A stretch of 64,000 nt of DNA from a virus: positions 1-64,000 of the IMG/VR virus record IMGVR_UViG_3300021168_000355. One strand, given 5' to 3'. The notes beneath the pieces were generated by a model. The model saw nothing but the letters and a program-made list of their open reading frames with translations, was not told where the DNA came from and ran no database searches. Of the stretch, positions 8,884-61,700 are shown one piece after another; the stretch's first letter is position 1, and every line of letters begins with the position of its first letter. The position numbers were made by a program, and so were the translations under genes.

Positions 8884-9110
8884 ATGAAAGGTGATACTTG
8901 CTCGGGGAATCTCATACCGCAGCGGAACCTAGACTACCGGCGAGGGTACGTGGAGATTGTTGCATGTTAATCTCCATCAGTCCACTACAAGGCATTGTTC
9001 GGGCTCCCGAGCAAGGAGTCGCTTCGGCGACAAGGTCATTGAGCCCGTGAAACGATGCAACGTCTAGGATACTCGCCCCCGATGACTCCCGTCGTCGGGG
9101 GCGGTATTTA
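8884..9110 (+). ncRNA. candidate pseudoknotted structured RNA
   Basis: Extended -10 TGTGCTATTAT (8868-8878); multiple long helices, a UUCG tetraloop and a terminal GC-rich hairpin. Confidence 0.6.
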
Positions 9111-9124
9111 TTGAGGAGGGAAAA

Positions 9125-9436
9125 ATGAAAGCGGTATTGATTGGGGCATTCTTACTCTCACTGGGGGCTACCAATGCGGAAGCTTGTCACCGATTTAGTC
9201 GATGGTATTACCCCTACCCCCAGCGGTGTGATACGCGGCCCCTAAAGCACGATCTGGTTTATCGGGTGACCTCAGATCCGCCCGTACCGACTCCTCGCGA
9301 GGACGATGTTACTACCGACCCAGAGATTCCATTGCCCGATATGGCAGCGGTGTGGGAACCCCAAAGTGATTTTAAGGAATTGCAAGAAGGTCTGGAGCGA
9401 AAGAAAGCCTTAATTCTTTTGCTCAGTCGTCCCTAA
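9125..9436 (+). CDS. predicted secreted protein
   Basis: Signal peptide ending AEA; ACHRFSRWYYPYPQRC; strong GAGGAGG RBS. Confidence 0.7.
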   Translation: MKAVLIGAFLLSLGATNAEACHRFSRWYYPYPQRCDTRPLKHDLVYRVTSDPPVPTPREDDVTTDPEIPLPDMAAVWEPQSDFKELQEGLERKKALILLLSRP

Positions 9437-9634
9437 TTCTTTGTTCGCCGCATCAAGCGCCGCCATGATAATATTGCCGATCGGGGATGGATCAACGAAG
9501 GGATGCATTGATCCATCACTCGCCTTAGCGAGAATGGTTGGCGTGCTTAGGGCGATAATGATTTGATTAACCGCCTCTCCTGACAGATAGATATCAGGAG
9601 TAGCAGTGCCGGGTGGCTTAAAGGGTGTGTTCAT
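9410..9634 (-). CDS. hypothetical protein (leaderless)
   Basis: ATG lies 6 nt after the -10 of the promoter at 9641-9669. Confidence 0.6.
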   Translation of the reverse strand: MNTPFKPPGTATPDIYLSGEAVNQIIIALSTPTILAKASDGSMHPFVDPSPIGNIIMAALDAANKELGTTEQKN

Positions 9635-9640
9635 TTGACC

Positions 9641-9669
9641 ACGCTATCATAAATGCCCGAGGGTGTCAA
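9641..9669 (-). promoter_or_regulatory. sigma70-type promoter
   Basis: TTGACA-N17-TAGCGT on the minus strand. Confidence 0.65.
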
Positions 9670-9673
9670 GTCC

Positions 9674-9982
9674 TTATTTGTCACTTTTTCTACTAATCCA
9701 ATAAGCTATTACTGTGGAAAATGCCGCGATGAGACCACCAATTACATTGGATGTGGTCTCATTATTTGGTACCACAAAAAATACACTAAAAACAACCAAT
9801 CCCATAAACGTTAATATAACCAAAATAGATATGGTTAACATTCCATGTGTTGGATCAAATCTGGCTGAGGCGATTAATAATATAATGGTGAATGCGATGG
9901 CAAGTGCAATACCCATAGTTGCAGGATAATCAAGAAGTTTAGGTACTGGAGGCAAGTTCCCAACATATTCACTCGGGCTCAT
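9674..9982 (-). CDS. membrane protein (3 TM), lysis-cassette associated
   Basis: Three hydrophobic helices; C-terminal FSTVIAYW pattern like small holins. Confidence 0.55.
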   Translation of the reverse strand: MSPSEYVGNLPPVPKLLDYPATMGIALAIAFTIILLIASARFDPTHGMLTISILVILTFMGLVVFSVFFVVPNNETTSNVIGGLIAAFSTVIAYWISRKSDK

Positions 9983-10215
9983 TTCCCTAAGACTTTCGCG
10001 ACACCATAGACGCCGTATAGCCCAATTGCCATCCCAGCTATTTCAAGAGAAGTCCGAAACAAATGTTCGGGCGAACACAAATCGCTTGCCGCTATTCCTG
10101 TATGGGCTAAAGCAAAACACTGGCTCACCGCATAAAAGTCCATGAGCGCGAATATCGTTAAGATTAGTAACGCACCACATAGAGCGATTAGGCTGGTGAG
10201 CGGAGTTGGGTTCAT
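9979..10215 (-). CDS. small membrane protein (2 TM)
   Basis: Two hydrophobic segments; ATGA overlaps. Confidence 0.55.
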   Translation of the reverse strand: MNPTPLTSLIALCGALLILTIFALMDFYAVSQCFALAHTGIAASDLCSPEHLFRTSLEIAGMAIGLYGVYGVAKVLGK

Positions 10216-11253: not shown

Positions 11254-11469
11254 TTATTCCTCCTCAGGTGATGGAAGCGTCGAGTTCTCTGCTGGGGGAG
11301 CAGGTTGTTGAGCAGCAGCGGGTTGATTGCCCTCATCGAGCCATGCGAGATATTCCTGATAGTCGATGTTATCGGGATCAAATGGAATGAATGCACCATC
11401 CTCGTCTCGCACGATGATGGTTTTGTGGACATCATTCGACATGTGATCCCAGATTTGGGTGTAGGACAT
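11254..11469 (-). CDS. small tail-fibre-associated protein/chaperone
   Basis: IVR..DGAFIPFDPDN.DYQEYLAWL.EGN.P motif typical of genes downstream of fibre genes. Confidence 0.65.
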   Translation of the reverse strand: MSYTQIWDHMSNDVHKTIIVRDEDGAFIPFDPDNIDYQEYLAWLDEGNQPAAAQQPAPPAENSTLPSPEEE

Positions 11470-11470
11470 G

Positions 11471-12649: not shown

Positions 12650-12651
12650 AG

Positions 12652-14007
12652 TTAAAACTCCGCGCTTATGGTTGCACTAAAATTACAGTTTGTACCAGCA
12701 CCACTCGCAGTAACTACCATATTGGATCTGAATCCATATGGATCCGTTTGAGGGATACCTAAAGTGGATCCATTGGAATAAATTTGATTGGAAGGTGTTA
12801 CTGTTGGTGCTGCCCGCATTGTTGTGGGAAATGTATATGAGGTATAAATCATACCACCTGCAATATTATAACCAGCCGTTAAAAACGCAAAGGTGGGTTG
12901 TTGATAGTATCGCTGGCAATCAAGCAAACTTTCGGCTAATGATTTCCGGTTAAAAGGTGTGGCGACGGAGCCAATTTCCAATTTGACGCCTGTTATAAAG
13001 AAGGCTGAACTAGCAACGGAGACGATGCTATACGCACCCGTTGCACCAAGAAAATTGCCATTTTGCCATTGTCCTGGTATACCGCGCCAATTTGTACCAC
13101 AGCCAAGGTCAAATGATAAAGATAATCCGCCACCGTTGCCACTCATTATCCACGTTCCAGAAGCATCTGGTGGAATAGGAATAGTAATTTTAGTCCACGT
13201 GCTGGCCCCTGGGAGTGCAAAGGTAAACGGATATGATCGTGTTGGTGTACTGGCTGATGTATTACGAATTGATCCACTATATGTTCCAGCATTGATTGAC
13301 GCCGCCCAAAACGACAAAGTGGCTGGTTGTGCGTTGGCTGTTCCCCAACAAAAGTCGCTGACCATGTCAGCTTCAATCACTTGGTAAACGTAGAAAAAAT
13401 CCGTTGCTAGAGAGGTATATGGTGTAGTTGGGCATAACCACGATGTATAATTAGGAAATCCAATAGCCACCGAACCCGGACCACTTCCTTGACCCCAATT
13501 AATTTTAGCGGCTTGTGCTGCGCCAAAACCAATACGATCAACGGTATAACCTGAGGCGGATCCACTAGCGACTCCTCGTTGGTTGATCCGCATGTCGCCA
13601 TTGATGATACGGTTGGAACCAATCATTGGATATTGATTGAAATACCTCAGAGTAACAGGATTGAATATGTTGACAGGATCACCATTGAGGACAAGTGGAC
13701 CGGTTAAATTGCCACCAGACAGGGGCAGATAAGCTCCGCCTTGTTGATTGGTGGCTGGCACCCACTGGGACGAATTACCGTCATAAAACCAAATATACAT
13801 TTGACCTTTGACACTATCCCACCACATTGATCCTATTGCAGGGGATGAGGGTGGAGTATCGCCGATGGATATTGATGCGCCGCCACCGCCGCCTCCCCCA
13901 GAGCCGGGTGTGAGGGTCCACTTGACGCCATCCCACGTCCAGGTGATTCCGCCCGACGTGAAAGTTTGACCATTTGTTGGATTGGCGGGGAAGTCAATCA
14001 TGGTCAA
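12652..14007 (-). CDS. tail fibre/receptor-binding protein 2
   Basis: Same architecture as 11471, plus one WWDS..GQ.Y.W module. Confidence 0.8.
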   Translation of the reverse strand: MTMIDFPANPTNGQTFTSGGITWTWDGVKWTLTPGSGGGGGGGASISIGDTPPSSPAIGSMWWDSVKGQMYIWFYDGNSSQWVPATNQQGGAYLPLSGGNLTGPLVLNGDPVNIFNPVTLRYFNQYPMIGSNRIINGDMRINQRGVASGSASGYTVDRIGFGAAQAAKINWGQGSGPGSVAIGFPNYTSWLCPTTPYTSLATDFFYVYQVIEADMVSDFCWGTANAQPATLSFWAASINAGTYSGSIRNTSASTPTRSYPFTFALPGASTWTKITIPIPPDASGTWIMSGNGGGLSLSFDLGCGTNWRGIPGQWQNGNFLGATGAYSIVSVASSAFFITGVKLEIGSVATPFNRKSLAESLLDCQRYYQQPTFAFLTAGYNIAGGMIYTSYTFPTTMRAAPTVTPSNQIYSNGSTLGIPQTDPYGFRSNMVVTASGAGTNCNFSATISAEF

Positions 14008-32898: not shown

Positions 32899-32988
32899 GG
32901 GCAGTCTGACATGGCTAAAGATGGGAGGTAATCCTTAACCTATGTCAAACTGCCCTATCCGCCCAAGCTTGAGGAGGCCCCGTGCGGA
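32899..32988 (-). ncRNA. cuckoo-like twin-hairpin RNA in the capsid 3' UTR
   Basis: Two hairpins presenting CCUCCUC and CCUCCC; G-U pairs favour the minus strand. Confidence 0.5.
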
Positions 32989-47887: not shown

Positions 47888-48031
47888 TCGGTTAAGGTGC
47901 AGTCATCGGTTCGCCCGACACGGCACCTTACCGATATCACGTCCCTAATTGTTAGGAGTTCCCCCTCTTAGCACCGCACATGGGATGTGATTGGGGTCGA
48001 GGTCATGCGCCCCCCGTAAAACCTCGACCCC
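47888..48031 (+). ncRNA. candidate three-hairpin RNA with C-rich loops
   Basis: Three abutting hairpins; loops TTCCCC and CCCCC. Confidence 0.45.
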
Positions 48032-48934: not shown

Positions 48935-49375
48935 ATGGCTAAATCAAAAGTGGTCACCAAGAAAAAGTTCAAGGCGGCTATGGGGCGTGATCCCATTCAA
49001 GATGAACTGGAGCGGTGCAATTGCGCTCTGGGCGGGAGTACAGGTCATTGGGGGTGTGGATGGTGCGAAGAATGCAACAAACCACGCTATGTTTGCTCCC
49101 ATCTGCCCCGTCCCCCATTGCGAGATATCGTGACGGTCAATTTGACTGTGGCTCCAGTGCGAATGGGTGCTGATGCTCCCAGGGGTCCGGAGGGTCCCAA
49201 AGTTGTGCGCCCTATGACTGAGGTCGAGAAGGAGATTGCCAGAGCAGATATGGCCTTTCTGATTGCAAAGGAGAAGGAGTCTGGGGACTGGGATAAGTGG
49301 CAGGAGAGCCAGAAGCATTGGACTGGTGCTGGAGTGCAACGTGATCTTAGGACGGGGAGATTCCGAGCGCGATGA
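48935..49375 (+). CDS. hypothetical Cys-rich protein
   Basis: RCNC...GH..CGWC..C..P...C.H. Confidence 0.6.
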   Translation: MAKSKVVTKKKFKAAMGRDPIQDELERCNCALGGSTGHWGCGWCEECNKPRYVCSHLPRPPLRDIVTVNLTVAPVRMGADAPRGPEGPKVVRPMTEVEKEIARADMAFLIAKEKESGDWDKWQESQKHWTGAGVQRDLRTGRFRAR

Positions 49376-49614
49376 CCCATGTCGTTGGATGTATGAGGAT
49401 CACCAAGCATGACCCCAAAGTCAAGTCGCGGTTGGATTGGTGCGCCAAATGCAAATTTCCGATCGCTGTTGCCCTGAGCACTCCAGTCTTTGATGATGCG
49501 GTCTATATGTGCATGTCTTGCATTCCGTGGGACGAGGTAAATGAGATTAGTCCAATAACGCTTGAACAAATCGCCGATATCAAGCAGGTACTGGAGAGGG
49601 AGAATGGCAACTAA
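49372..49614 (+). CDS. hypothetical zinc-ribbon protein
   Basis: CAKC...CMSC. Confidence 0.6.
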   Translation: MTHVVGCMRITKHDPKVKSRLDWCAKCKFPIAVALSTPVFDDAVYMCMSCIPWDEVNEISPITLEQIADIKQVLERENGN

Positions 49615-49768
49615 GGTTAGATATGCTCCCTGTTCAGAAAAGGATTGGTATAAGTTGCCTTTAAAGCTCCGACAACGGTGGTGGGATGAAACGAACTATA
49701 GCCGGAATAAACCCAGTCCTGAATTAAGGAAGGCAATAAAGGAGGCTTTAAATGGCAACCGTCACTAA
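49604..49768 (+). CDS. hypothetical protein
   Basis: GGGAG RBS; part of an overlapping gene chain. Confidence 0.55.
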   Translation: MATKVRYAPCSEKDWYKLPLKLRQRWWDETNYSRNKPSPELRKAIKEALNGNRH

Positions 49769-49949
49769 GAAGGAATTAAGTGAGGCGGGTTGTGGAACTC
49801 CCGGCTGCACCCACGACCATTCGGTTATTTATCTAACACAGGGCTGTCATCCAGGTAAAGGACTTGAGGTTCGGTACGACAAGCAAAAGGAACAATTGCT
49901 TGTCACCTGCTTTGCCTGCGATGCGGACGTGACAACCATTCAACTCTAA
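49752..49949 (+). CDS. hypothetical Cys/His-rich protein
   Basis: AAGGAGG RBS; CGTPGC..CH..CFAC. Confidence 0.65.
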   Translation: MATVTKKELSEAGCGTPGCTHDHSVIYLTQGCHPGKGLEVRYDKQKEQLLVTCFACDADVTTIQL

Positions 49950-50170
49950 TGGGGGCATCTTTGGATCCAAAGGAATTTGATTGCGAGGATTGTGGGTGCC
50001 ACGTTTATTCATGGGCCGATGACGATGCCGTAACCTGTCTTGTCTGCACATGGATTCGCTCTATGCCAGATTTGACAGAGGCCGAGATTGCCGAGATTCG
50101 GATGATGACAGCTACACCCGTCAAAGTTAAATGGAGAGGAGGAGACGATGGCGAAGCAAATGGCCTATGA
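49949..50170 (+). CDS. hypothetical zinc-ribbon protein
   Basis: CEDC...CLVC; TAATG overlap. Confidence 0.6.
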   Translation: MGASLDPKEFDCEDCGCHVYSWADDDAVTCLVCTWIRSMPDLTEAEIAEIRMMTATPVKVKWRGGDDGEANGL

Positions 50171-50357
50171 CAGCGAGTGTTGGAATCTCGCCGAACACTT
50201 TCTGACAGGCGAACCCATTCCCCCAGAGCGTGAGCGGGAGATAACGGAGTTGCTCGCACAGGAGATCCAGGACTGTGTGGAATCGTTCTGTACGTCCTCA
50301 CTGCCCCATTTGCTTGCACCAAAACCTGCGATTCCAGATGATGGGGGTATTCGTTAG
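50148..50357 (+). CDS. hypothetical protein
   Basis: GGAGG RBS; YD..C..LAEHFL...LAQ.IQ. Confidence 0.65.
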   Translation: MAKQMAYDSECWNLAEHFLTGEPIPPEREREITELLAQEIQDCVESFCTSSLPHLLAPKPAIPDDGGIR

Positions 50358-50554
50358 TGGCTTGTACCCCGCAGCTTGTGTTGTTGGTCCGTCAAGCTAT
50401 TGCGGCGGCGGTGGACAACGACTACGATGTCACCACATATTCGGATGAGGATCTGGCCGGAGACCTCGCAGCCTATGAGTACACGGTCGAAACCGAGGCA
50501 TATGAAGATATCCTCGAGGCGGTGAAGATTGTGCGGGGGAGGACTGTAACATGA
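50357..50554 (+). CDS. hypothetical acidic protein
   Basis: Overlapping gene chain. Confidence 0.5.
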   Translation: MACTPQLVLLVRQAIAAAVDNDYDVTTYSDEDLAGDLAAYEYTVETEAYEDILEAVKIVRGRTVT

Positions 50555-50787
50555 AAGCACCAACAAACGCCGAGGTATCACGGAAAAGTGAACTGGTTCG
50601 GGTCAAGTATGGCAATATGACCTTTACGGATGCGAACCTCGAGTTCGCCTACGAATTACAGGGGTTCATCAAAGCAATGGTCGTTGACCATCACCAAGAT
50701 ATGAACAATGCACTGGCGAAGGTCGGCGAACTCCTGTTTATGATCGATGAGGCTCAAAAGCCAGGCAAGGTTAATAGGTGGAAATGA
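50551..50787 (+). CDS. hypothetical protein
   Basis: GGAGG RBS; ATGA overlap. Confidence 0.6.
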   Translation: MKAPTNAEVSRKSELVRVKYGNMTFTDANLEFAYELQGFIKAMVVDHHQDMNNALAKVGELLFMIDEAQKPGKVNRWK

Positions 50788-50791
50788 TCGC

Positions 50792-50820
50792 TTGACAGGG
50801 ATGACTCCTTCTGCTATAGT
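50792..50820 (+). promoter_or_regulatory. sigma70-type promoter
   Basis: TTGACA-N17-TATAGT. Confidence 0.8.
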
Positions 50821-50856
50821 GTAACCATTAACGAGCCAGAGAGGAGGCAAAATGCT

Positions 50857-51021
50857 ATGTCAAAGCGATACCTCCGGGCGGTCTGGATCGCGATGTTCCA
50901 TGTTGTGATCCTGACGGCAGCCCACAACGTCGCCGAGGTGTTGGCAGATGTTGGCAAGGAACTGGCGGTACTGGTCAGGGACGAGTTGGCACTTGATGCA
51001 GTGGTGGCAGTGACTAAGTAG
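50857..51021 (+). CDS. small single-TM protein (54 aa)
   Basis: GGAGG RBS; hand-translated MSKRYLRAVWIAMFHVVILTAAHNVAEVLADVGKELAVLVRDELALDAVVAVTK. Confidence 0.6.
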   Translation: MSKRYLRAVWIAMFHVVILTAAHNVAEVLADVGKELAVLVRDELALDAVVAVTK

Positions 51022-51023
51022 GA

Positions 51024-51054
51024 AGTAGGGCTCGGGGACGAGCCCTACTTTTTT
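51024..51054 (+). terminator. Rho-independent terminator
   Basis: AGTAGGGCTC/GAGCCCTACT hairpin plus T run. Confidence 0.8.
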
Positions 51055-51071
51055 GGAGAGGGAGGCTGAGC

Positions 51072-51284
51072 ATGGGTAAAGGTAAAGACAAGAAAAAAGC
51101 GAAGAAAAAGGCAGAGAAGCGGATGCAAAAGGAAGCCCGAGCCTCGTTCCACCGCGCCCACCAGATTGTAGCTACCGTAATTCTGGCTAAGGAGCTTGGC
51201 TCCATCATGCGCCGCGAACGGGACAAGCCATCGCCTGTGCAAACGGACGCTCATAAGTCCCCCGACCCTTCCCCGGCCAAATGA
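51072..51284 (+). CDS. small basic protein
   Basis: GGAGG RBS; Lys-rich N-terminus. Confidence 0.55.
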   Translation: MGKGKDKKKAKKKAEKRMQKEARASFHRAHQIVATVILAKELGSIMRRERDKPSPVQTDAHKSPDPSPAK

Positions 51285-51351
51285 TAATAATCCCCCAGCT
51301 TAGACTTGCGTGAGCAAAGGCATGATGGCAATAGTGGGTATATGGGAGTTT

Positions 51352-51537
51352 ATGAGGTCTGGTTGGAGTTGGTTGTATGATCTGGGCTGGGGTGGTTTAT
51401 TGGGGTTGGTGGCTGTTGTGTGCGTGTTGTTGCCTTGTAAGTGGGACCCAGCTATAAGGCTGAAGGAATGGTTCGAGGGTTGGGATAGGGAGGGGCCGGA
51501 TGATCATGAGGAGGAATTGGAAGCAGACGATCATTGA
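51352..51537 (+). CDS. small membrane protein
   Basis: One TM, LP.KWDPAI.LKE, acidic tail. Confidence 0.5.
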   Translation: MRSGWSWLYDLGWGGLLGLVAVVCVLLPCKWDPAIRLKEWFEGWDREGPDDHEEELEADDH

Positions 51538-51701
51538 CGGCGGGGTGAATTATACATAAATAAGGGGTGGTTATTATTTTTTCTGGTGGGGTTGGGAGGG
51601 GTGCAGGCCCCCCCTTCGGCAAAACCACGGCAATCGTAAACTTTTTCGGGGTATCCCAAGGCCCACCGTGAACGCACCATGAACACCACATAGCAATCCG
51701 C

Positions 51702-51739
51702 CAAAGAAAAGCCCTGCGCTCAACTGGTGAGGCAGGGCT
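51702..51739 (-). terminator. terminator of the leftward mini-operon
   Basis: AGCCCTGC...GCAGGGCT plus TTTCTTT on the minus strand. Confidence 0.7.
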
Positions 51740-51838
51740 GGTCAATGGGAGGCGACGGTGCTATCCTACACCCAGCCCCTCATTAGAGCGGTGGTGAGAA
51801 GGACAACCGCGATGGTGTTGGCAATGACCGGGCCCATT

Positions 51839-52216
51839 TTATTCGCCCGACAATGCATGGTCAGTGCCTCGCGTAGAGGCGGCGGCGAACAGGCGGGCCT
51901 GGCGTGCCCGTATGCTCCCGTCAAGGCATGTCCTCTGGCCCACATGCTGATGGAGGTGTCCAGCGCATACCAGGGCCTGGCAGCGTGGGCACTCTGCCAC
52001 CACACGGCGATTAGGGCGACCGTCCTTCCCCTTGAGACGCTGGGGAAGGACCAGGACCAGGACCTCGCCGATGCGATGGACGCTAACGTGGTCGGGGGGA
52101 ATGGCGACCCCAGGCCTCAAGCCCAGCGCGGTGAGCAGGTCGCGGCTGTCCATTGGATAGCCATGCTGGTCCTTGAGGTAAGTGGTGCGGACCATGTTGC
52201 GGTAGGTAATACGCAT
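51839..52216 (-). CDS. hypothetical protein with C2H2-like motif
   Basis: AAGGAGG RBS; CPRC...GHL.QH...C. Confidence 0.65.
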   Translation of the reverse strand: MRITYRNMVRTTYLKDQHGYPMDSRDLLTALGLRPGVAIPPDHVSVHRIGEVLVLVLPQRLKGKDGRPNRRVVAECPRCQALVCAGHLHQHVGQRTCLDGSIRARQARLFAAASTRGTDHALSGE

Positions 52217-52226
52217 TGGAGCCTCC

Positions 52227-52487
52227 TTAGTGGCAAGAGCAGTGGTGAACGCGATGGGCGTGGACGACAGGCGCAGGCACTGTGACCACGTGGACCTCAA
52301 CTACCACCCGTTGCACGGGAGGCAGGGGAGGCGACGCAATGCCTGCCTGAGCGGTGTCGGTGGGCAGGTAGGCGTAGGCAAGGCAGCCAAGGACAAAGGC
52401 GATGATTAGGGCGAGGACAAGGCGGGGATCAAGGCGGCGATCGGTGGCGGCGGTGGCGGGAGCAGACTTGGCAGTGGACTTGGTCAT
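52227..52487 (-). CDS. membrane-anchored protein with His-rich tail
   Basis: One TM; ends HAHRVHHCSCH; GGAG RBS. Confidence 0.6.
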   Translation of the reverse strand: MTKSTAKSAPATAATDRRLDPRLVLALIIAFVLGCLAYAYLPTDTAQAGIASPPLPPVQRVVVEVHVVTVPAPVVHAHRVHHCSCH

Positions 52488-52512
52488 GAGAGGGACTCCA
52501 GTTTGGGGATTG

Positions 52513-52540
52513 AAAAAAGGGGCGCCTGAGAGGCGCCCCT
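52513..52540 (-). terminator. Rho-independent terminator
   Basis: GGGGCGCCT/AGGCGCCCC plus T run on the minus strand. Confidence 0.8.
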
Positions 52541-52551
52541 CGTTGCGTGAA

Positions 52552-53022
52552 TTACGCCTTCACCTCCTGCGCGACTGGCGCGACGGGCGCCAGCTTGTAT
52601 CGCTTGAGGTCGCCCTTGTCGCAACGGACAAGCTTGCGCTGGGTGATCTTGGCGATATCATGCAGGTCGGTGTGGATCGAGGACAGCTGGCGCAATTTGC
52701 CCCCTCGCTCCTGCGTTGCGGCACTCGCCTCTTGCAAGCTTACGCCCTCCTCACGCTGAAGGAGGGGATAAAGCACGAAGCGATTGGTGCCCTCGCGGAA
52801 GGCGCCAGTTTTGGCGAATGAAGCTTGCGCCTTCTTCATTGTGTCCTCCCACTTCACCTTCTCAGGCGCAGCGGCAGGAGCAGGCGTCTCGGCGACAGGC
52901 GCCGGAGCAGGCGTCTCAACAATCGGCGCCGGAGCAGGCGTCTCGATTGCAGGCGTTTCGGCGACGTTCGAGGTCTTCGAGGACTTGCGAGCGGCGGCGC
53001 GTTGGGCTTTAGTCAAGGACAT
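52552..53022 (-). CDS. hypothetical protein with ETPAP repeats and possible winged-helix C-domain
   Basis: ETPA(P) x4; R.GT....L...L.R.EG.SL.E. Confidence 0.65.
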   Translation of the reverse strand: MSLTKAQRAAARKSSKTSNVAETPAIETPAPAPIVETPAPAPVAETPAPAAAPEKVKWEDTMKKAQASFAKTGAFREGTNRFVLYPLLQREEGVSLQEASAATQERGGKLRQLSSIHTDLHDIAKITQRKLVRCDKGDLKRYKLAPVAPVAQEVKA

Positions 53023-53096
53023 TGTAGTATCTCACAGTTTGAGGTGGCGGCAGAGGCACTCAGGCTTGCCGGAGTCGATCAATCGACCCAACGCAA

Positions 53097-53125
53097 ACAA
53101 TAGACCCGATCGGATTCCAGTGCAA
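53097..53125 (-). promoter_or_regulatory. leftward promoter
   Basis: TTGCAC-N17-TATTGT. Confidence 0.55.
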
Positions 53126-53988
53126 CAAAAAACCAAGCAGGAGTGGATATTAAATTTAGTTGGCCGTCATCTAAAAAACAGTTGGCTCGCGTATAACACT
53201 AACCAGCGTGCGGTCCAATGGCGGAACCATCACTTTTGGTGATATGCGTTTAAATCGGCACAGAGGCTCGCTGACGGCGTTCCTTTTCGCCTCCAGCGTG
53301 CTATGGGGGCACCGCCGACTTTGCCGTGTACGAGGAAATTCCGAAAAACCAAAACCGAAAGGCCCTCTTTCGGTTCTAATTTCCAGAACCCAACTGCCAG
53401 AGTTCTGGCGAAACCTGCGACGATTGGCACAGAGGCGGTCTACACTGGCGATAGGAAATTCCAGGTATTACTTAGTCCCTGGAAAAAAATTCCTGCCGTC
53501 AGCGGTGGGTCTGAGGCGGTTTTAATAGGCTAAAACAAGGTTTGCCAATACTTAGCCTTTACTTGGTTCAGGACAGCCTATACTTGACTATACTTGCGTT
53601 GGACAAAGTATTGTGTTAGTCTAGTAAATCGATAGAGGTTCTGAGGTAACGGATTCGGATTCTGGGAATGTGGGAATGAGGCATTGGGATAGGCAGAAGG
53701 TTCTGGAATCGGGAAACTGGCAACAGGGAGGCCCGCTTTCCAGAAGCTTTGGGATTTCCAGAAGGCGGGATCAGGACTTGGGATTTCCAACAGGAGGTCA
53801 CAGTGTGTCCCCAGCGCCACAGTGACAGGGAAAGCACACCGTTGCTCCTATGTCACACCTTCGGAATTCCAGAAGTTGACAGGTGTCAACATTCGGGATT
53901 CCAGTAGGAGGATAGGACAAGGCATTGGCACGCCTCTCGCCGCCAATTGAGGCGTGCTAATAGCCCATCGTATTAACGATTGGGTATA

Positions 53989-54043
53989 GGCTCGGGGACG
54001 ACCCACATTGTCCTCGAGCCTTTTTTATTTTAGTATACTAAAC
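53989..54043 (+). terminator. terminator hairpin followed by operator palindrome
   Basis: GGCTCGGGGAC...GTCCTCGAGCC plus T run, then TTTTAGTATACTAAA. Confidence 0.6.
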
Positions 54044-54355
54044 AGGCTAAGCGATGTGTAGCCACAATTCTGGTATTCCGAAAGAGGCAGAGCAACGCTC
54101 TGCCTCTACCTGTGCTGTGAACATGCTAATAGGTGCGGTATTCCGTGTCCCCCAGCGCCGAAGGCGCTGCCGAGCAGAGCGAGGCAATTCATTGTTCTCC
54201 CTTCATTATTCAGGTACCAGGGGTGGGTTTTTTCTGAGGGGTGGGGTGGTTTTTCCTGTAAAGTTTTCCGGCTTTTTGGTGCAGAGTTTTCCGCTTTCCT
54301 TCCCCCAGCGAGAGCAAAAGTGTATCGATGGTGTATCCAAGTACCGTATCTCTTG

Positions 54356-54368
54356 TAAGTTATTGATA
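54356..54368 (-). promoter_or_regulatory. IHF-consensus site in the putative origin
   Basis: TATCAATAACTTA matches WATCAANNNNTTR; flanked by GTGTAT/ATACAC repeats. Confidence 0.5.
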
Positions 54369-54647
54369 TCATTGAGCTTTTTAAATGAGGAAATACACTA
54401 ATACACTAAATACACTGGAATCTAACAAAGTTCCGTGTAACCATGATTGTGGGAAAAAATCCCTGTTCCGCAATCTACCACACACTTAACCTGTAACTAC
54501 TCACAGTTGTAAGGTATGACATACACAACTTTAACGACCATTTATTTATTTATTTAGTCCCATATAGAAATTTGTAAACCCCTTGTGTCTAGTGTATCGT
54601 GTGTATTCGCCTGTAAAAATAAATCATTTTTGTGGATATATACGGTA

Positions 54648-54676
54648 TTGACAAGGACAAGCTTCCATGCTACTAT
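54648..54676 (+). promoter_or_regulatory. promoter of the replication operon
   Basis: TTGACA-N17-TACTAT. Confidence 0.75.
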
Positions 54677-54705
54677 ACATAATAAAGGAAAACAGGAAAA
54701 TCCTG

Positions 54706-54939
54706 ATGAACGACGTATCCTTCCTCAAAGAAACCTTTATGACCAGAGCAGAAACAACTGCCTATATTCGCTCAAAAGGTCATCACATTAGTTCTTTTTC
54801 CTTATCATATCTTGCCACACAAAAGCAAGGTCCTCCTTATAAAATATTCGGCGTTAGTGCCATTTATTCAATTACCGATGTTGATGCTTGGATAGCATCT
54901 TACTTCCGAAAATCCGAAAAACTATCCGCTACCGCTTAA
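54706..54939 (+). CDS. excisionase/AlpA-like HTH protein
   Basis: TR.E..AYI......S..L..LA...GPPY..FG..AIY...DVDAW. Confidence 0.7.
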   Translation: MNDVSFLKETFMTRAETTAYIRSKGHHISSFSLSYLATQKQGPPYKIFGVSAIYSITDVDAWIASYFRKSEKLSATA

Positions 54940-54980
54940 AGCGCCATATCGCGTTATAACCATAGTCATGGATTATATCA

Positions 54981-57647
54981 ATGTCCGCCTATAAGCAAGA
55001 AATGACGCGGCATAGAGGAAGACCAAGGAAACAACAACCACCAAGAGTAATACCTCATGCAATAATGAGATTATACCATCCTGATGGCACTCCTCATGTT
55101 GAGGCATCACCGGGTGAAGAGGCACGTAGATTTGCTAATAGCCTACGCTTGAATTCTGGACCTGCCATTAAAGCGTTAGGCACACTCCTCAACCCTGAAC
55201 CTCCATTCAAGTTTGAACGTATTGATGCCGTAACTGAATTAACCTACAAAGACGGCTCAATTCCGTTTCTTGAAGTTCGTATCCTAAAGCAAAATTCGAC
55301 GGGATTTGTTTCAACCTCTAATCCTAATCTATTGTCATTCCCAGAATCTCCTAATAAAACAAATAAGGAATATAAACACATATACTTCGGAGATAAAATA
55401 TGGCCAACAGATCCAGAAACAGGCAACGAGCGGACTGATCGCAACACCTTTTGCAATACCACCAGTGCCCTCTTTCAAACAGGACTATTTATTCCTTCTA
55501 ATGCTCCGGCGGCGGTGGAATTATTAAAACGCTATCGAAGTGATCTGGATGAATACAATCGACGCCTCACAGCGTTTAAAGCCTCACAATCACCAGATTA
55601 TCAGGGATCAGACACGCCCCCAACATTTCCAGAGCAACAACCTCCAACACCAGTCTTTATATGGACTGAGGGAGATAAATCACGACGAGGTGTAGAATCA
55701 TATATAAATCCAGATGATCCAGCAATCCTCAGCCTTCTTGAAGAATACAATGTGGACATTGTTACTCTAGGCGTATTAGCGGGAGCGCCGGGAGCCGCTA
55801 ATACCAATTACACACTACGACCATACTCCAATGACTTCATTGTCAAAGGAGTAAATGATGAATTTCTGGAATTACCGCTCGCCTTACACATATACGCCCG
55901 CGATAACGATGATGACGGGAGAACAGAAGCAAATATAACCGCACAAGCCCTCGTCAAGCTGGGGGTGCCTGTGGAGCAGGTGCGAATAGCGAATCCACCT
56001 ATTAGTGCGCCTTTGAAATGGGATGATGGGGATCAATTACCTCCTGGCATATCTGCATATGACCGCTTGAAACAAATCCTTGATGCACCAGCAACAATTG
56101 GTCAATATGTTTTTCGTGCGAAAGGCAAGGAACAGGAAGTAGATCCAACTAACCGCAACAATAAGCGATTGGCTATTCAACGTATATCCACAGCCATTTT
56201 TGATGAGACCTCAACTGGTGAACGCCACTTTGTAATCTCTAAAACAGGAGAAACATTATCAGCATCCGATTATATGTATATGGCAGAATTGTGTCTTGAG
56301 GAGATGGGCCATCAACCCACAGATAACCTCCTTCGTGAAGGGGATTGGAAGCCTGTATTCGTTAGTCGATTTCCACATCAAATTGAAACCCGCAATTTTA
56401 TCTATGAAGAGGTAATGCAAACCATTGAGAGAGGGCAATTCGAGCTTGCCTCTGCACCAAATAAAGAGATATACAATCCAGAAACATATCTCCTTGATGG
56501 ATTTGGATTGCCTGACACAATTCGCAATCGCCTTATATCCAGAGTTATCATCCGAGACTTTGTTGCGGTTACATTACGCGCACATTTGGACAAAGGTCCT
56601 GTAATACCTCAAATGTTGCCAATCCTACATGCTGATGAAGGAGTAGGCAAATCGGAGTTCTGTAAAGTTCTAGCTGGGGGAACACCTGGTCCTGAATCCT
56701 TTCATTCACGATACTCCAATAACATTGATATTGGTGATCTTAAATCCTTAGCTGATAGGGGTCAGGCAGCATTTGCTAATAAAGCCAAATGTAAAACCAT
56801 ATTAGAATTCCAAGATAAAGCACTCGGCGATACCATAACAATAGCCCAGAATGGATTATTGAATGATATGGCAAACATGTCTCAGGTACAGTTTCGTGAA
56901 CCTTATAAAGTATATACCTCATTCCCTCGCCAATTCATAATCATCTTTACCACTAATCGTGAGGACTTGATTGGTCATAATATGGGACGGCGGCGGTGGA
57001 TCATTGTTGACCTAAACCAATCAATGAAGGGATTTGCTAAACGAGCGGCAGAATTACGAAAGAGGAAATTAGATCCAAATTCAGAGCCTCTAACATTGGA
57101 AGAGGAACTCATTGCTCAGGGACATAATCCTGGAATCCTTAAGAACTTCCAAAAGAGAGCAGCAACATTAGCCTATATGTATAATTCTGGAGAGTGGAGA
57201 GGAACATTGATAGTTCCCCCAGAGCTAACATCAGATATGGAAGAGGAAAGAGATAAATTCTCCCCAACACAAAATTGGGAATTGGTATTACAGGAAGAAT
57301 TATTGAGAGAACCCCATGATGAAGAAGAGGGAACATTGGCGACAGAGACTAGAATGGTATTATCAACCTCATTATATGCCGCTGTCAAAGAGAGAACAGG
57401 TCGTGAGCCTCCTGATGCGAACTTTGGGAAATTAATGAAAAGCTTAGGATACAAGAACTACAAAATCCACAAGAAGAATGCTCGAGGTTGGTCAAAGGCT
57501 AAAACTGTTGAGGATATCAAAGAGTTCTCCAGATTTAAGCCAGCAGCACATGGGTCAGCAGGTCATTGGTATTTCTGTATTGATCCTCTTGATGTATCAG
57601 GAGCACGGCCACCCCGTCGTCATGTTGACCCAGATGTATTCCAATAG
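54981..57647 (+). CDS. primase (Toprim-like)-VirE/VapE helicase
   Basis: WTEG.K, DND..G, WD..D; Walker A EGVGKS; PRQF....TTN...RRW. Confidence 0.8.
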   Translation: MSAYKQEMTRHRGRPRKQQPPRVIPHAIMRLYHPDGTPHVEASPGEEARRFANSLRLNSGPAIKALGTLLNPEPPFKFERIDAVTELTYKDGSIPFLEVRILKQNSTGFVSTSNPNLLSFPESPNKTNKEYKHIYFGDKIWPTDPETGNERTDRNTFCNTTSALFQTGLFIPSNAPAAVELLKRYRSDLDEYNRRLTAFKASQSPDYQGSDTPPTFPEQQPPTPVFIWTEGDKSRRGVESYINPDDPAILSLLEEYNVDIVTLGVLAGAPGAANTNYTLRPYSNDFIVKGVNDEFLELPLALHIYARDNDDDGRTEANITAQALVKLGVPVEQVRIANPPISAPLKWDDGDQLPPGISAYDRLKQILDAPATIGQYVFRAKGKEQEVDPTNRNNKRLAIQRISTAIFDETSTGERHFVISKTGETLSASDYMYMAELCLEEMGHQPTDNLLREGDWKPVFVSRFPHQIETRNFIYEEVMQTIERGQFELASAPNKEIYNPETYLLDGFGLPDTIRNRLISRVIIRDFVAVTLRAHLDKGPVIPQMLPILHADEGVGKSEFCKVLAGGTPGPESFHSRYSNNIDIGDLKSLADRGQAAFANKAKCKTILEFQDKALGDTITIAQNGLLNDMANMSQVQFREPYKVYTSFPRQFIIIFTTNREDLIGHNMGRRRWIIVDLNQSMKGFAKRAAELRKRKLDPNSEPLTLEEELIAQGHNPGILKNFQKRAATLAYMYNSGEWRGTLIVPPELTSDMEEERDKFSPTQNWELVLQEELLREPHDEEEGTLATETRMVLSTSLYAAVKERTGREPPDANFGKLMKSLGYKNYKIHKKNARGWSKAKTVEDIKEFSRFKPAAHGSAGHWYFCIDPLDVSGARPPRRHVDPDVFQ

Positions 57648-57657
57648 GGAGATAGAC

Positions 57658-57975
57658 ATGAGAGCACCTATACCTGTAGCCTATGTCACATCTGCTCCAT
57701 CTAATTGGTATAAACTTACTTTTGATGGATCAGGATACAATAAAGAACCAATATTAGCTTTTGCCATTACTGCTGAGGGGTATGCAGCACCTATAGTACC
57801 TTTTCAAACTGGTATACTAGATGATGATTATACCTTATTATATCCTGACGGGAGAGTTGATGATAGTTTTCGGATATATGATAATGTGGATGAATGGTTC
57901 GCAACAATGGTAATATCGCGTGAGGCAGAAATCCATTCTATCGCAACCAATATGGTAAAACATTCCAATGAATGA
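57658..57975 (+). CDS. hypothetical protein
   Basis: GGGAG RBS; EPI.A.A...P....PDG.V. Confidence 0.6.
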   Translation: MRAPIPVAYVTSAPSNWYKLTFDGSGYNKEPILAFAITAEGYAAPIVPFQTGILDDDYTLLYPDGRVDDSFRIYDNVDEWFATMVISREAEIHSIATNMVKHSNE

Positions 57976-58156
57976 TAAATCCCGTCTGCCACACATACAA
58001 CTTCAGCGTGCGTATTGGGAAATTCGGAAAAACAGGACAACACACAGGCATGTGCTGATGGGTTGTACTTCCAAATTCTCCTCTATCAAAAGAATAGGAC
58101 CATGGCGTCCAGCTGAGATAAATGAATGGTTTGGCGATACAAAGAAACCGGTGTGA
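57968..58156 (+). CDS. small hypothetical protein
   Basis: Fills the operon gap. Confidence 0.45.
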   Translation: MNDKSRLPHIQLQRAYWEIRKNRTTHRHVLMGCTSKFSSIKRIGPWRPAEINEWFGDTKKPV

Positions 58157-58157
58157 C

Positions 58158-58532
58158 ATGGCTGAGATCCTTCCATTATCAAATGGCAATTTAGCTAAAG
58201 CCACTCTCGCAGCACAGGAATGGCTAACTGAGACCTTTGCTGTGTTTCGTCCACCACCATCTCCTGATTACCCTGATCCTATGCCTTTGCAACTTGGCAT
58301 ATACGAACTCATCCTCTCTGTTGCGCCAGAAAATATATCCCCTGCTGGGGTGAAGAACTTCCTTATCCAATATACGACTAGGCCTGAATATTATCAAATG
58401 GTACTGGAATCGTCACGACGATTTGACCTCAACGCATTGCCTTTAATGCTTATCACAGATGAGGAACGAGAATATGCGAGACGATGCCTATATCCTAATG
58501 AATTTCAGGAAATACCAGACGATCAAGCTTGA
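58158..58532 (+). CDS. ProQ/FinO-domain RNA chaperone
   Basis: WL.E.F..F...P.PLQLGI...L..YT.R.EY......RFDLN..P...IT.EE.EYA. Confidence 0.75.
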   Translation: MAEILPLSNGNLAKATLAAQEWLTETFAVFRPPPSPDYPDPMPLQLGIYELILSVAPENISPAGVKNFLIQYTTRPEYYQMVLESSRRFDLNALPLMLITDEEREYARRCLYPNEFQEIPDDQA

Positions 58533-58557
58533 CAGGAATCTCAATCTATGCTAGAGT
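58529..58557 (+). promoter_or_regulatory. sigma70-type promoter
   Basis: TTGACA-N17-TAGAGT. Confidence 0.75.
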
Positions 58558-58564
58558 ACCTCAC

Positions 58565-59299
58565 ATGAATAACAAAATCCAGATCACCTCAGGGAAATAC
58601 AATGCTGCAACTGGACTCTACGAGAAGAACCCTTTTGCCGAAGCACCACCAGAGGCTGATGCTTTTGTTCCTGATTACCAATCGGAACGAGAACCTACAG
58701 TGGATCCAAGCGTGTTCGAGGAGGTGGCACCGCCAAGCGACCCGCCTCCTGAGACAGATAACAAAACCCCAATCGACCTCAAATATGTCCAAGACAAGGC
58801 TAAACGATTGGTTGCAATCGAAGACCGATTAGAGGAAATCGCTGCTGAGGAGAAAGTCCTCAAGGAAGAACAAAGGCAGATACGCATCTTCCAGCTTCCA
58901 GAAGCCATGTTTGAATTGGATATTAAGCCACCCGTCATTGGTGTTGGCAATCGATTAGTGGAGGTTGTGCCGCTTGTGACTGCTTCACTTCCAGCTAAGG
59001 AAGATCCAGATAAGCGTCAGAAAGCCATCAATGCGGTCATCGATCTGGGACTGGGTGGCAATGTTCGGCGCGCCTTAGAGATAGACTTTCCCAACGATGC
59101 AATAGTGGAACACAAAATCTTGGATGCGATTAGTGCTATTGACAAAGACCTCAAGCCTCGCATCAGTGCCACTATTCACCACGCGACCTATACCTCGATG
59201 ATTAGCAAGTTAATAGCCGCGGGAAAGGCCATCGACCGCGACCTGCTGGGGGTATGGGTTGGCAACATCGCAAGAGTTAAAAAGGTTAAGAATGATTAA
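58565..59299 (+). CDS. conserved phage replication-module coiled-coil protein
   Basis: Coiled coil + LPEAM.E + IHH.TY; usually adjacent to SSB/PolA. Confidence 0.6.
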   Translation: MNNKIQITSGKYNAATGLYEKNPFAEAPPEADAFVPDYQSEREPTVDPSVFEEVAPPSDPPPETDNKTPIDLKYVQDKAKRLVAIEDRLEEIAAEEKVLKEEQRQIRIFQLPEAMFELDIKPPVIGVGNRLVEVVPLVTASLPAKEDPDKRQKAINAVIDLGLGGNVRRALEIDFPNDAIVEHKILDAISAIDKDLKPRISATIHHATYTSMISKLIAAGKAIDRDLLGVWVGNIARVKKVKND

Positions 59300-59415
59300 C
59301 TGGCGCGATCCAGCACAGAGACTGGGTACAATGGTCTTTCCTAGCAGGCTAATACTTAAGGAGTGGGCATGGGACACTCCCGGGAGCGCGCCATCTAACA
59401 AGAGGAGGAGAGATA

Positions 59416-59607
59416 ATGGCAAATCTTGATTTGGGCAATGATAATGTGTTTGAGGAAGCTTTAACCGTTGACGAAATCCGAGACGAGGACCCGGAGAAAA
59501 TGGATGCTCTCACGATCAAACTCCACGAATGGTTGGACAATGCTCAGGCTCCTGTGTTCACTGGTGATCACCGCGTTACCTACTTGGTTATTGAGATCAC
59601 CAAGTGA
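59416..59607 (+). CDS. hypothetical protein
   Basis: GGAGG RBS. Confidence 0.6.
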   Translation: MANLDLGNDNVFEEALTVDEIRDEDPEKMDALTIKLHEWLDNAQAPVFTGDHRVTYLVIEITK

Positions 59608-59812
59608 GGTCGCAGAGGGCTGGTTTATATATCGACGTGGACGTTGGCGCCTACAAAGAATCATGCGCGATCAGGTGCGATGGGACAAAGCGCATCATAT
59701 TCCCGTTTATAAATGGTCAGTCACATTTACGAATGGGGCAGATGTCCGATCTGGAATGAGTAAATGGCTTTGGCTCGCAATATGGCGAGCACGTTGGGGA
59801 ATAACCAGATGA
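59468..59812 (+). CDS. hypothetical Trp-rich protein (start uncertain)
   Basis: 3' part fills the gap; stop overlaps the next ATG. Confidence 0.35.
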   Translation: MTKSETRTRRKWMLSRSNSTNGWTMLRLLCSLVITALPTWLLRSPSEVAEGWFIYRRGRWRLQRIMRDQVRWDKAHHIPVYKWSVTFTNGADVRSGMSKWLWLAIWRARWGITR

Positions 59813-60375
59813 AGCGTGAGTGTGGTGAGTGCCAATTGTGCTGCAAACTATTACCTGTTGTCTCGCTCAATAAGGTAGCAAACCAGAAATGTGAATTCCA
59901 AAAGTTTCATAAAGGATGTACGGTATATCGTACCAAGAAAATGCCAATCGAATGTCATGTGTGGTCGTGTCGCTGGATTACAAGCCAGTTACCCGACAAC
60001 ATGGCTCGACCTGATCGTGTCCATTTCGTTGTGGATACTATGCCCGACAACATCGTTATCCAAGACCATGAAGCCGATACATCACATGCAATGGAATGCA
60101 TTGTTGTTTGGTGTGATCCAAAGCATCCCCTCGCCTATCGTAATCCAGACTTATACAATTGGGTTGCCGAACAAAACAAAGTCCTAATGGTACGAATGAA
60201 CTCGCGGGATTCCATCATCGTGTTTCCCCCAGCACTCAATTCGACGCATGAATGGGCGGAGGTTACTACCGAAGCCTCAGAACGTGATGTGGTAACAAAG
60301 GCAGTTGAGGATGCAATCAGAGAGGGATACGAACAAAGAAACGGGCCCGTCCAATTCAACCTTGCAGCACGATGA
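59809..60375 (+). CDS. YkgJ-like CxxCxxCC metal-binding protein
   Basis: CGECQLCCK...C...GC.VY...P..C..W.C.W, RPD. Confidence 0.75.
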   Translation: MKRECGECQLCCKLLPVVSLNKVANQKCEFQKFHKGCTVYRTKKMPIECHVWSCRWITSQLPDNMARPDRVHFVVDTMPDNIVIQDHEADTSHAMECIVVWCDPKHPLAYRNPDLYNWVAEQNKVLMVRMNSRDSIIVFPPALNSTHEWAEVTTEASERDVVTKAVEDAIREGYEQRNGPVQFNLAAR

Positions 60376-60604
60376 CCACATATGGCTGACTGTTGGGGGA
60401 CGAGCGTGGGCTATCTATGCCAAAGATGGTGACCTCATAACTCTATGGCGGGGATACTATCCTTGGCTTGAATGGTCTTTCTTAGATATATCCAATGTTA
60501 ATTGGGAATCATATCACGAAAAGGCATTGGCACTTCTATATCCTCCTTTGGAGGCATTAAAGCAACCGTCGCCTCAGGTTACGCAAGGAGTTAACAATGA
60601 CTGA
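60305..60604 (+). CDS. hypothetical protein (start uncertain)
   Basis: Fills the gap before SSB. Confidence 0.35.
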   Translation: MRMQSERDTNKETGPSNSTLQHDDHIWLTVGGRAWAIYAKDGDLITLWRGYYPWLEWSFLDISNVNWESYHEKALALLYPPLEALKQPSPQVTQGVNND

Positions 60605-61568
60605 TACCCAGACTTCGCCTGCTGCCGCGCCTACAAACTCTCCTGTCGTTGAAATGCCATCCACTGAAACAGCGGGAGCTATGTCCGTTGTCGATGACCT
60701 CGACTTGAGAGGAGATGCTGGTTCTGGTTTCGAGGATGTTCGGTCTACTGATTTGGTGCTTCCCTTTTGGAAGCTCCTTCAGAGTGCGGGAAACGAAACC
60801 AAAAAGAGCGAACCGGAATACATCAAGGGAGCCACGGAAGGGATGTGGCTTGACACTGTTACTAAGCGCCTGTACCGTGATATCATTGTTGTTCCTTGTA
60901 AGATGGTGACCCACTATATCGAATGGCGTAAGCGTAACGAAGGCGGCGGTCTGATCAAGAACCACGGCACCGATCGAGCTATTCTCGACCAAACCCATCG
61001 TGACGAAAAGACAGGTAAGGATACGTTGCCAAACGGCCATGAGGTCATCACAACCGCTACATGGTTTTGTCTTGTGATTGGAGGAAAGGAGATCAACACC
61101 GCGGTAACCGATGATCCCGGCACCGAGATTGAATTGCTGACCAGAGCAGTAATCACATTCCAATCAACCGCTTTGAAAGCGTCTCGGGGATGGGTATCGT
61201 TGGCCCAAGCGTTGAAGTTACGGGATCCAAAAACCAATCAACAGTACCAACCGCCGATGTTCGCCATGACGTACATGCTGGGGGTCGTGGGTACCCGCAA
61301 CGATGCTGGCAGCTGGGTTTTGCCAGTTGTCAAGCAAGCTGGATGGACGACTGACTATCCCAATGCCCAAGCATTGATTAAGGAGGCTCGCGAATATACC
61401 AAACTTGCCAATGAACTGCACCTGATGGTCATCACGCCTCAAGGCAGCGGTGATGAGGATCGCCCCCAGCGGGATGCGAAGGCGGGTCGGTATGAGGATG
61501 ATCGGCGTCGTCAGCCTCAGCCTGCAGGTGGTCGGAATCCAGGAGAGGATGACGATATTCCTTTCTGA
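60597..61568 (+). CDS. phage single-stranded DNA-binding protein
   Basis: GFE.....DL..P..KLLQ, YIEW, acidic C-terminal tip DDDIPF. Confidence 0.75.
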   Translation: MTDTQTSPAAAPTNSPVVEMPSTETAGAMSVVDDLDLRGDAGSGFEDVRSTDLVLPFWKLLQSAGNETKKSEPEYIKGATEGMWLDTVTKRLYRDIIVVPCKMVTHYIEWRKRNEGGGLIKNHGTDRAILDQTHRDEKTGKDTLPNGHEVITTATWFCLVIGGKEINTAVTDDPGTEIELLTRAVITFQSTALKASRGWVSLAQALKLRDPKTNQQYQPPMFAMTYMLGVVGTRNDAGSWVLPVVKQAGWTTDYPNAQALIKEAREYTKLANELHLMVITPQGSGDEDRPQRDAKAGRYEDDRRRQPQPAGGRNPGEDDDIPF

Positions 61569-61577
61569 AATCCCAAC

Positions 61578-61606
61578 TTGACAGGCTAGGTTCCTTATGC
61601 TATGAT
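61578..61606 (+). promoter_or_regulatory. sigma70-type promoter
   Basis: TTGACA-N17-TATGAT. Confidence 0.8.
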
Positions 61607-61612
61607 GTAAAT

Positions 61613-61700
61613 ACTCCAGCCTCATCATTTCTTGCCCCCAAGCCCTGGTGGGGCTGGAGCTATCGCGAGACTGCCGGAGTTTATATAGCTCCGGCCTTTT
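61613..61700 (+). ncRNA. candidate ~90-nt sRNA
   Basis: Own promoter; 14-bp 5' stem with CCCC loop; terminator hairpin plus U run; no ORF. Confidence 0.6.

Follow-up and report, generated by a model that had tools for sequence, protein, structure and literature searches.

A minimal FinO/ProQ-domain protein and a mixed set of conserved RNA structures in the genome of an uncultured phage

The locus and its relatives

The DNA studied here is the first 64 kb (the window) of the 76,778-bp IMG/VR record IMGVR_UViG_3300021168_000355, which comes from an uncultured phage and is estimated to be 97% complete. The window contains a gene for a minimal FinO/ProQ-domain protein, hereafter ProQ, and four structured RNA elements, here called el1 to el4 (Table 1). 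The genome is arranged in three blocks. The early/middle block is found on the plus strand, extends from ~43.4 kb over the end of the record and on to 9.4 kb, and holds the helicase, VapE-type primase, QueF-like, radical-SAM, DNA polymerase A and GcrA-like genes, while the structural/lysis block, which includes the capsid gene at 32990-34012, occupies 9.7-43.5 kb on the minus strand.

Relatives at different distances cover different parts of this genome. L002 and L003, from metagenomes, share ~70-75% nucleotide identity with the window over 48956-64000; G003 shares 82-92% over 5389-35733; G002 and G004, which are of the same phage type as L002, share ~78-82% over 11300-53661; and G001 is 99% identical. 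G005 is a distant phage of 57.6 kb with 65-71% identity.

Table 1. Coordinates of the protein gene, the RNA elements and the genes beside them (ORF, open reading frame; aa, amino acids; MCP, major capsid protein; PK, pseudoknot; AF2, AlphaFold)
Feature	Coordinates	Strand	Basis or details
Minimal FinO/ProQ-domain protein gene, 124 aa	58158-58532	+	PF04352, AF2 model, Foldseek, RocC-aligned residues
62-aa ORF, conserved; TGAcATG couples its translation to that of ProQ	57968-58156	+	read from sequence
VapE-type primase/helicase gene, upstream of ProQ operon	54981-57647	+	PF05272, phrog_256/1313
el4, pseudoknotted RNA of ~225 nucleotides	8884-9112	+	z -4.9, covariation, G003/G005 homologs
el4 helices	PK 8897-8905/9007-9015; P2 8928-8934/9062-9068; P3 8992-9006/9041-9058; terminator 9073-9104
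Probable el4 promoter	8851-8879	+	weak -35 TAGCAG, 17 nucleotides, TGcTATTAT; read from sequence
GcrA-like gene, upstream of el4	8342-8848	+	PF07750 27.3 bits, just above cut-off 26.9
el1 promoter, TTGACA-17-TGcTATGAT	61578-61606	+	11/12 consensus positions, extended -10
el1, two-hairpin non-coding unit	61613-61700	+	hairpin 1 61614-61659; terminator 61673-61695 + UUUU; z -5.2
el2, twin hairpin directly 3' of major capsid gene	32899-32988	-	A 32958-32988, B 32899-32955; z -7.3
Major capsid protein gene, upstream of el2	32990-34012	-	phrog_6671 E 2e-135; tblastn to PdC23 MCP
el3, triple hairpin between PEP-CTERM gene and 55-aa ORF	47888-48031	+	47888-47934, 47936-47991, 47993-48031; z -9.2
PEP-CTERM protein gene, upstream of el3	47298-47885	+	PF07589 30.3 bits

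A FinO/ProQ-domain protein beside the primase

The assignment of the gene at 58158-58532 to the ProQ/FinO family, made in a preliminary description of the window, holds on several counts. The translated product matches PF04352 with 40.1 bits (cut-off 27; E 4e-10), and a profile built from 13 of its homologs matches RocC, ProQ and NMB1681 in the PDB. Structure prediction also agrees with a FinO fold, which combines a helical core and a beta-hairpin: the AlphaFold model has a predicted local distance difference test score (pLDDT) of 86.6, and its best Foldseek match is RocC (template modelling score 0.68-0.83, root-mean-square deviation ~2.1 Å), followed by NMB1681, Lpp1663 and FinO, with the next structures beyond the FinO-domain matches all at E > 1. 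In RocC, Gly52, Tyr87 and Arg97 form the pocket for the terminal 3' nucleotide, and Ser70 and Arg75 belong to the N-cap, by which the hairpin backbone is read (PMC9674577). The profile alignment places G47, Y78 and R88 of the phage protein at the three pocket positions and S61 and K66 at those of the N-cap, and all five residues are invariant across the 13 homolog clusters. The model and the alignment indicate that the gene encodes a genuine FinO-fold protein in which the residues of the 3'-end pocket and of the N-cap are intact.

The homologs found in metagenomes fall into 13 clusters with 60-77% identity to the phage protein. The ortholog in G005 is 41% identical, reaches 56 bits against PF04352 and lies after the primase gene, as in the window. 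The order primase, small ORF, ProQ, gp33-like, gp34-like is shared by two divergent lineages, G005 being one of them. In the window, the start codon of ProQ overlaps the stop of the small ORF, which is kept in L002, L004, L005 and L007 and has no match in Pfam or PHROG. The promoter at 58529 overlaps the ProQ stop codon, and both this promoter and that of el1 at 61578 start with TTGACAGG. Searches of 50,697 isolate phages by tblastn with both ProQ orthologs gave no homolog, those of IMG/VR returned nothing from the ProQ queries and nothing from a gp34 query, and a pattern search for ProQ over 185k species genomes was equally empty. Phage-encoded FinO-like genes are mentioned in a review and in the FopA paper (PMC9977716, PMC7491321), and the literature search gave no study on the function of any such phage protein.

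The shared gene order is what would be expected if ProQ took part in replication or copy control in the manner of FopA and PcnR. Its partner would then be an antisense RNA from the primase/gp33/gp34 module, or host RNAs, and it would be unconnected with el1-el4. Plasmid FinO-domain proteins do act on replication or transfer through antisense RNAs (PMC9977716). Nonetheless, no conserved pair of antisense promoter and terminator was found near ProQ, the sole terminator-like site antisense to the ORF before it (58057-58038) is not conserved, and no RNA of the C4 or IsrK type was detected by Rfam, so that we hold this explanation to be rather unlikely.

Four structured RNA elements

All four elements are present as the preliminary description had them, and each folds better on the transcribed strand than on the opposite one: -44.0 versus -37.6 kcal/mol for el1, -50.1 versus -37.6 for el2, -72.5 versus -67.9 for el3 and -97.0 versus -84.4 for el4 (8884-9110), the z-scores in Table 1 being relative to dinucleotide shuffles. 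The claim that their G-U pairs fall on the transcribed strand is supported for this reason. Pairing is kept through compensatory changes in the relatives, with compensatory pairs found for el2, el3 and el4 and the fold of el1 kept in L002. The Rfam scan that had been proposed places none of the four in a known family. At E up to 5 there are only matches far below threshold, mostly to models of miRNA precursors, which fit any long hairpin.

A pseudoknotted RNA at the end of the early/middle block

Every helix of el4 that had been named can pair, including the pseudoknot. In G003, where el4 is 87% identical, all helices and the pseudoknot are still pairable, and the insertions and deletions are sited in hairpin tips and unpaired stretches. 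Given that their lengths are mostly not multiples of three, el4 can hold no conserved ORF. The promoter block TGCTAyTmT is kept in G003 and G005, the promoter scan offering TGGACA-18-CAGAAT as an alternative, and the terminator is followed by UAUUUAUU.

A structure scan of the distant, ProQ-bearing G005 gave a homolog at 36603-36770 on the minus strand (L015:16603-16770, minus strand). Its place in the genome matches that of el4: it stands last in the early/middle block and runs convergent to the lysis genes. It shares with el4 the blocks CACUACAAGGCRUUGUUCGG and GUGAAACGAYGCAAC. In the alignment of the three sequences 98% of the cells are paired. Both partners have changed in six pairs, of which three belong to the pseudoknot, two to the closing helix P2 and one to P3, compared with 0-1 such pairs in slid controls. 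The pseudoknot arms of G005 have wholly different sequences, CCCUCCCUGAGG with CCUCAGGAGAGGG, and retain their complementarity. A covariance model of el4, R1, matches only these phages among 349 kb, and pattern scans of IMG/VR gave no members beyond the three known contigs. A 19-mer of el4 has 13 matches in bacterial genomes, where ~9 are expected by chance, and none of them fits R1. The strongest result of the analysis is that el4 is, as far as covariation can tell, a pseudoknotted RNA gene which matches no Rfam family.

A strong Shine-Dalgarno (SD) sequence and an ATG follow the terminator within ~20 nucleotides in both el1 and el4, an arrangement kept in L002 and G003, respectively. The two elements could on this account be cis leaders and nothing else, attenuators or antitermination sites on the pattern of the promoter-proximal terminated transcripts of lambdoid phages, that control ORFs 61718 and 9125; they would then not act as free RNAs, and ProQ would play no part. 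We regard this as very unlikely: the core of el4 is conserved more than the flanking genes, and the conserved sequence blocks sit in its unpaired regions. Furthermore, in G005 no same-strand ORF follows the homolog, which faces the lysis cassette, and for that reason el4 is better read as an RNA gene than as only the leader of orf9125.

The cassette that faces the G005 homolog consists of endolysin-like, holin-like and Pro-rich ORFs, and more hairpins follow the el4 core there. RNAalifold proposes an alternative in which the 5' pseudoknot arm (8897-8903) pairs with the SD of orf9125 (9112-9119), and a local pairing of CCGAGCAA (9007-9014) with UUGUUCGG (8995-9002) is also available. The existence of such alternatives is a hint of a switch.

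A two-hairpin RNA with its own promoter

The layout claimed for el1, an RNA of ~90 nucleotides running from promoter to terminator, is confirmed at the level of sequence by a near-consensus promoter and by an intrinsic terminator followed by CUUUUG. The promoter is kept in L002, at 13968-13997, and so is the start of the downstream ORF, whereas the ~100 nucleotides between them hardly align. The L002 counterpart has different stems and yet the same two-hairpin shape and the same z-score of -5.2. In both phages hairpin 2 forms an intrinsic terminator with UUUU behind it, and the 12-nucleotide apical motif of hairpin 1, GCCCCCnAGCCC, is kept in L002. The SD and ATG of a conserved 71-aa ORF (orf61718) come after the element, at 61718. 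In G005 el1 is absent and a plain terminator stands alone after gp34, so that el1 is lineage-specific. For the loop of el1, no target is orthologous between the window and L002; its best match, the gene at 51758, is not conserved.

Hairpin clusters behind the capsid and PEP-CTERM genes

The twin hairpin after the capsid gene, with its loops CCUCCUC and ACCUCCC, was found on the minus strand as described. The capsid protein itself is 53% identical to the annotated MCP of Pantoea phage PdC23 by tblastn. El2 has a 24-bp stem and no U-tract, and it is kept in G003, G004 and G005, with six compensatory pairs across the four lineages. In G005 the architecture is retained, but hairpin B is shorter and its loop is U-rich where the window has CCUCC. 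Three cultured phages that lack ProQ and whose capsid is 53% identical have a plain intrinsic terminator exactly at the el2 site. The simplest reading of these sequences is that el2 is a cis element which separates the capsid message from the downstream genes. Given its long stem and the lack of a U-tract, its role may lie in processing or in stabilising the 3' end.

The triple hairpin after the PEP-CTERM gene, with C-rich loops, was likewise confirmed. Its loops UUCCCCCU and GCGCCCCCCG are both conserved in G004, where the three hairpins are kept with nine compensatory pairs. Its U-tract is weak, UCCCUUUCC in the window and UUAUUUU in G004. In G004 (L017 ~4380-5080, minus strand) the PEP-CTERM gene is replaced by a divergent ORF of 232 aa with a signal-peptide-like start, and the el3 hairpins stay. 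The comparison indicates that the cargo gene before el3 is swappable and its 3' structure fixed, and el3 is most simply seen as a cis-acting cluster of hairpins in a 3' untranslated region (UTR). The nearest Atlas neighbours of the PEP-CTERM protein are FxDxF PEP-CTERM proteins of Pseudomonadota. They lead to that phylum only, and an alphaproteobacterial host is not established by them. Relatives found through orf48230 (L032-L034) were set aside as unrelated phages, without ProQ or el3.

With regard to their organization, only el1 and el4 run from a promoter to a terminator without a conserved ORF, and neither el2 nor el3 has its own promoter. The GC-rich hairpin with a U-tract that marks an intrinsic terminator is likewise present in el1 and el4, weak in el3 and missing from el2. 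The four elements are, on these sequence features, not one class: el1 and el4 are predicted autonomous non-coding units, and el2 and el3 are 3'-UTR or intercistronic hairpin clusters.

At least ten further strongly structured sites, mostly intrinsic terminators, were found in the genome by a genome-wide scan of minimum free energy and a terminator scan, with examples at 50.98-51.06 kb, 53988-54021, 62.6 kb and 65.3 kb. Strong intergenic structures lie in the segments 53915-54050, 50950-51075, 62615-62745 and 63400-63545. Among them, 53988-54021 is a terminator that scores on both strands, another terminator lies at ~51030-51060, and ~62676-62718 is a perfect AU-rich hairpin of 19 bp. Runs of five C are not enriched in non-coding DNA, and the other such sites are not in hairpin loops.

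Relation between the protein and the RNA structures

We favour, with a probability of about 0.6, a reading in which the phage has a functional minimal FinO/ProQ protein in its replication module and, separately from it, a mixed set of conserved RNA structures, el1 and el4 being autonomous units and el2 and el3 acting in cis. ProQ would be a conserved gene of the replication module, the product of which would bind RNA through its FinO/ProQ domain. El1 and el4 would be transcribed autonomously from sigma-70 promoters to terminators, el1 as a FinP-like two-hairpin RNA that would also be the terminated leader of a small ORF. Because both end in a hairpin and U-tail, which FinO domains recognise, el1 and el4 are plausible candidate ligands of ProQ. 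El2 and el3 most likely work in cis, as partial terminators or as stabilisers of the 3' end or of processing, and would thereby set the levels of the capsid and PEP-CTERM messages. A link between ProQ and the RNAs is plausible, and their union into a riboregulatory system is put forward as a hypothesis.

Several observations weigh against the favoured reading. El2 has no U-tract and hence is not a canonical terminator. A pure role as terminator or stabiliser would leave unexplained the recurrent C-rich loops (CCUCC, CCCCC) that el1 and el3 keep, and these could be seeds. Among the extended SD sequences of the phage the commonest is UGAGGAGG, which complements el2 loop A exactly. In both lineages where the two regions are visible, ProQ and el4 occur together, as a functional pair would; given that both look like core genes of the phage group, this co-occurrence (n=2) says little. 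Finally, the structures were worked out on the window sequence, and only two to four lineages enter each comparison.

The preliminary description had gone further and made ProQ the dedicated chaperone of a four-member set of small RNAs (sRNAs), the C-rich loops of which would pair with SD sequences and silence phage or host mRNAs. The intact FinO fold, the C-rich loops kept in el1 and el3, and the complementarity of el2 loop A to the commonest extended SD are all in line with that model. So is a perfect match of 10 nucleotides between el2 loop A, GGCCUCCUCA (32967-32976), and the SD of orf61718, UGAGGAGGCC (61702-61711), but this match is not kept in L002 or G004 and is, as such, probably due to chance. 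The remaining evidence turns against the model, which we consider unlikely. The pairing energies of loops with start regions barely exceed background, and no orthologous phage target was found for the loop motif kept in el1 and el3. In G005 the loop and the SD sequences have not changed in step with each other, and the CCUCC loop of hairpin B is gone there. Neither action in trans through anti-SD loops nor a role of ProQ as chaperone of the four is supported by these results. The same applies to membership of all four elements in one sRNA set, given the position of el2 and el3 within 3' UTRs and the plain terminator at the el2 site of phages without ProQ. Co-occurrence of ProQ with the RNAs is seen in part: el4 accompanies ProQ in two divergent lineages, and el1 is missing from G005, which has ProQ.

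A more specific proposal would be that el4 founds a new class of pseudoknotted phage non-coding RNA, co-inherited with ProQ as a dedicated module at the boundary between the early/middle and lysis genes, and that el1 is a second, lineage-specific and ProQ-dependent sRNA. We consider this proposal improbable.

Other features of the genome

No tRNA genes were detected in the window, and no Rfam 15 family was matched at the gathering score in the window, the rest of the genome, G005 or L002. The early/middle block includes a QueF-like gene (1068-1496), a radical-SAM QueE-like gene (4194-4901) and a family A DNA polymerase gene (5160-7211). It is probable that this phage modifies its DNA with 7-deazaguanine. 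Promoters close to the sigma-70 consensus and with an extended -10 (TG) form a family on the plus strand, at 7217, 45186, 46625, 50792, 54648, 58529 and 61578. A candidate type II hammerhead, with CUGACGAG and GAAA, lies at G000 72878-72948 (L025:8878-8948) and has no Rfam match at the gathering score nor at E up to 1.

Significance and comparison with known systems

The FinO-domain members studied so far are all plasmid or chromosomal. The phage offers a compact case, with a bare FinO domain of 124 aa that has every RNA-contact residue, two candidate ligand RNAs that end in terminators, and in el4 a pseudoknotted RNA that is backed by covariation and absent from Rfam. If the link between ProQ and the RNAs is true, riboregulation of the FinO type would extend to the control of the phage lytic cycle. 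If there is no such link, the el4 RNA family and the hairpins that recur behind the capsid gene would still help to annotate the architecture of phage transcripts.

Among the RNA structures, el2 resembles the terminator after the MCP gene of PdC23, vB_YenM_29.18 and Chronis in position, behind the MCP gene and before the following one, and in being a strong hairpin. It differs in having two hairpins, a 24-bp stem and C-rich loops and in lacking a U-tract. C-rich anti-SD loops are known from sRNAs such as the CcsR or 'cuckoo' RNAs of Alphaproteobacteria and the UCCC-loop sRNAs of Staphylococcus. Repeated hairpins after a small gene, with CCUCC or CCCC in the loops, are the point of likeness with these sRNAs. 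El1-el4 differ from them in that no conserved target was found and that Rfam shows nothing similar at E up to 5.

Among the proteins, NMB1681 of Neisseria and Lpp1663 of Legionella are close to the phage ProQ in having a FinO domain with short extensions only (Foldseek probability 1.0). Those two are chromosomal global RNA binders, whereas the phage protein is phage-borne, ~23-25% identical to them and in a subfamily of its own, made up of the 13 clusters and G005. FopA with Inc and repZ, and PcnR, both of IncI plasmids, share with it a FinO-domain gene that is carried by a mobile element and tied to replication functions, although no Inc-like antisense RNA was found near the phage primase. 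The name FopA refers to plasmid and phage, by which phage homologs are acknowledged (PMC7491321, PMC9977716).

Further parallels are FinO-FinP/traJ of F-like plasmids and RocC-RocR of Legionella, in which a FinO-domain protein is encoded on, or acts for, a mobile element. The phage case differs from both in that ProQ is phage-encoded, lies in a replication module and is a bare FinO domain of 124 aa, and in that el1 has no antisense target in cis. The likeness, as judged from sequence and model, lies on the protein side in the conserved 3'-end pocket and N-cap residues of RocC, and on the RNA side in the architecture of FinP, which like the candidate el1 consists of a stem-loop, a single-stranded linker and a terminator hairpin with a 3' U tail.

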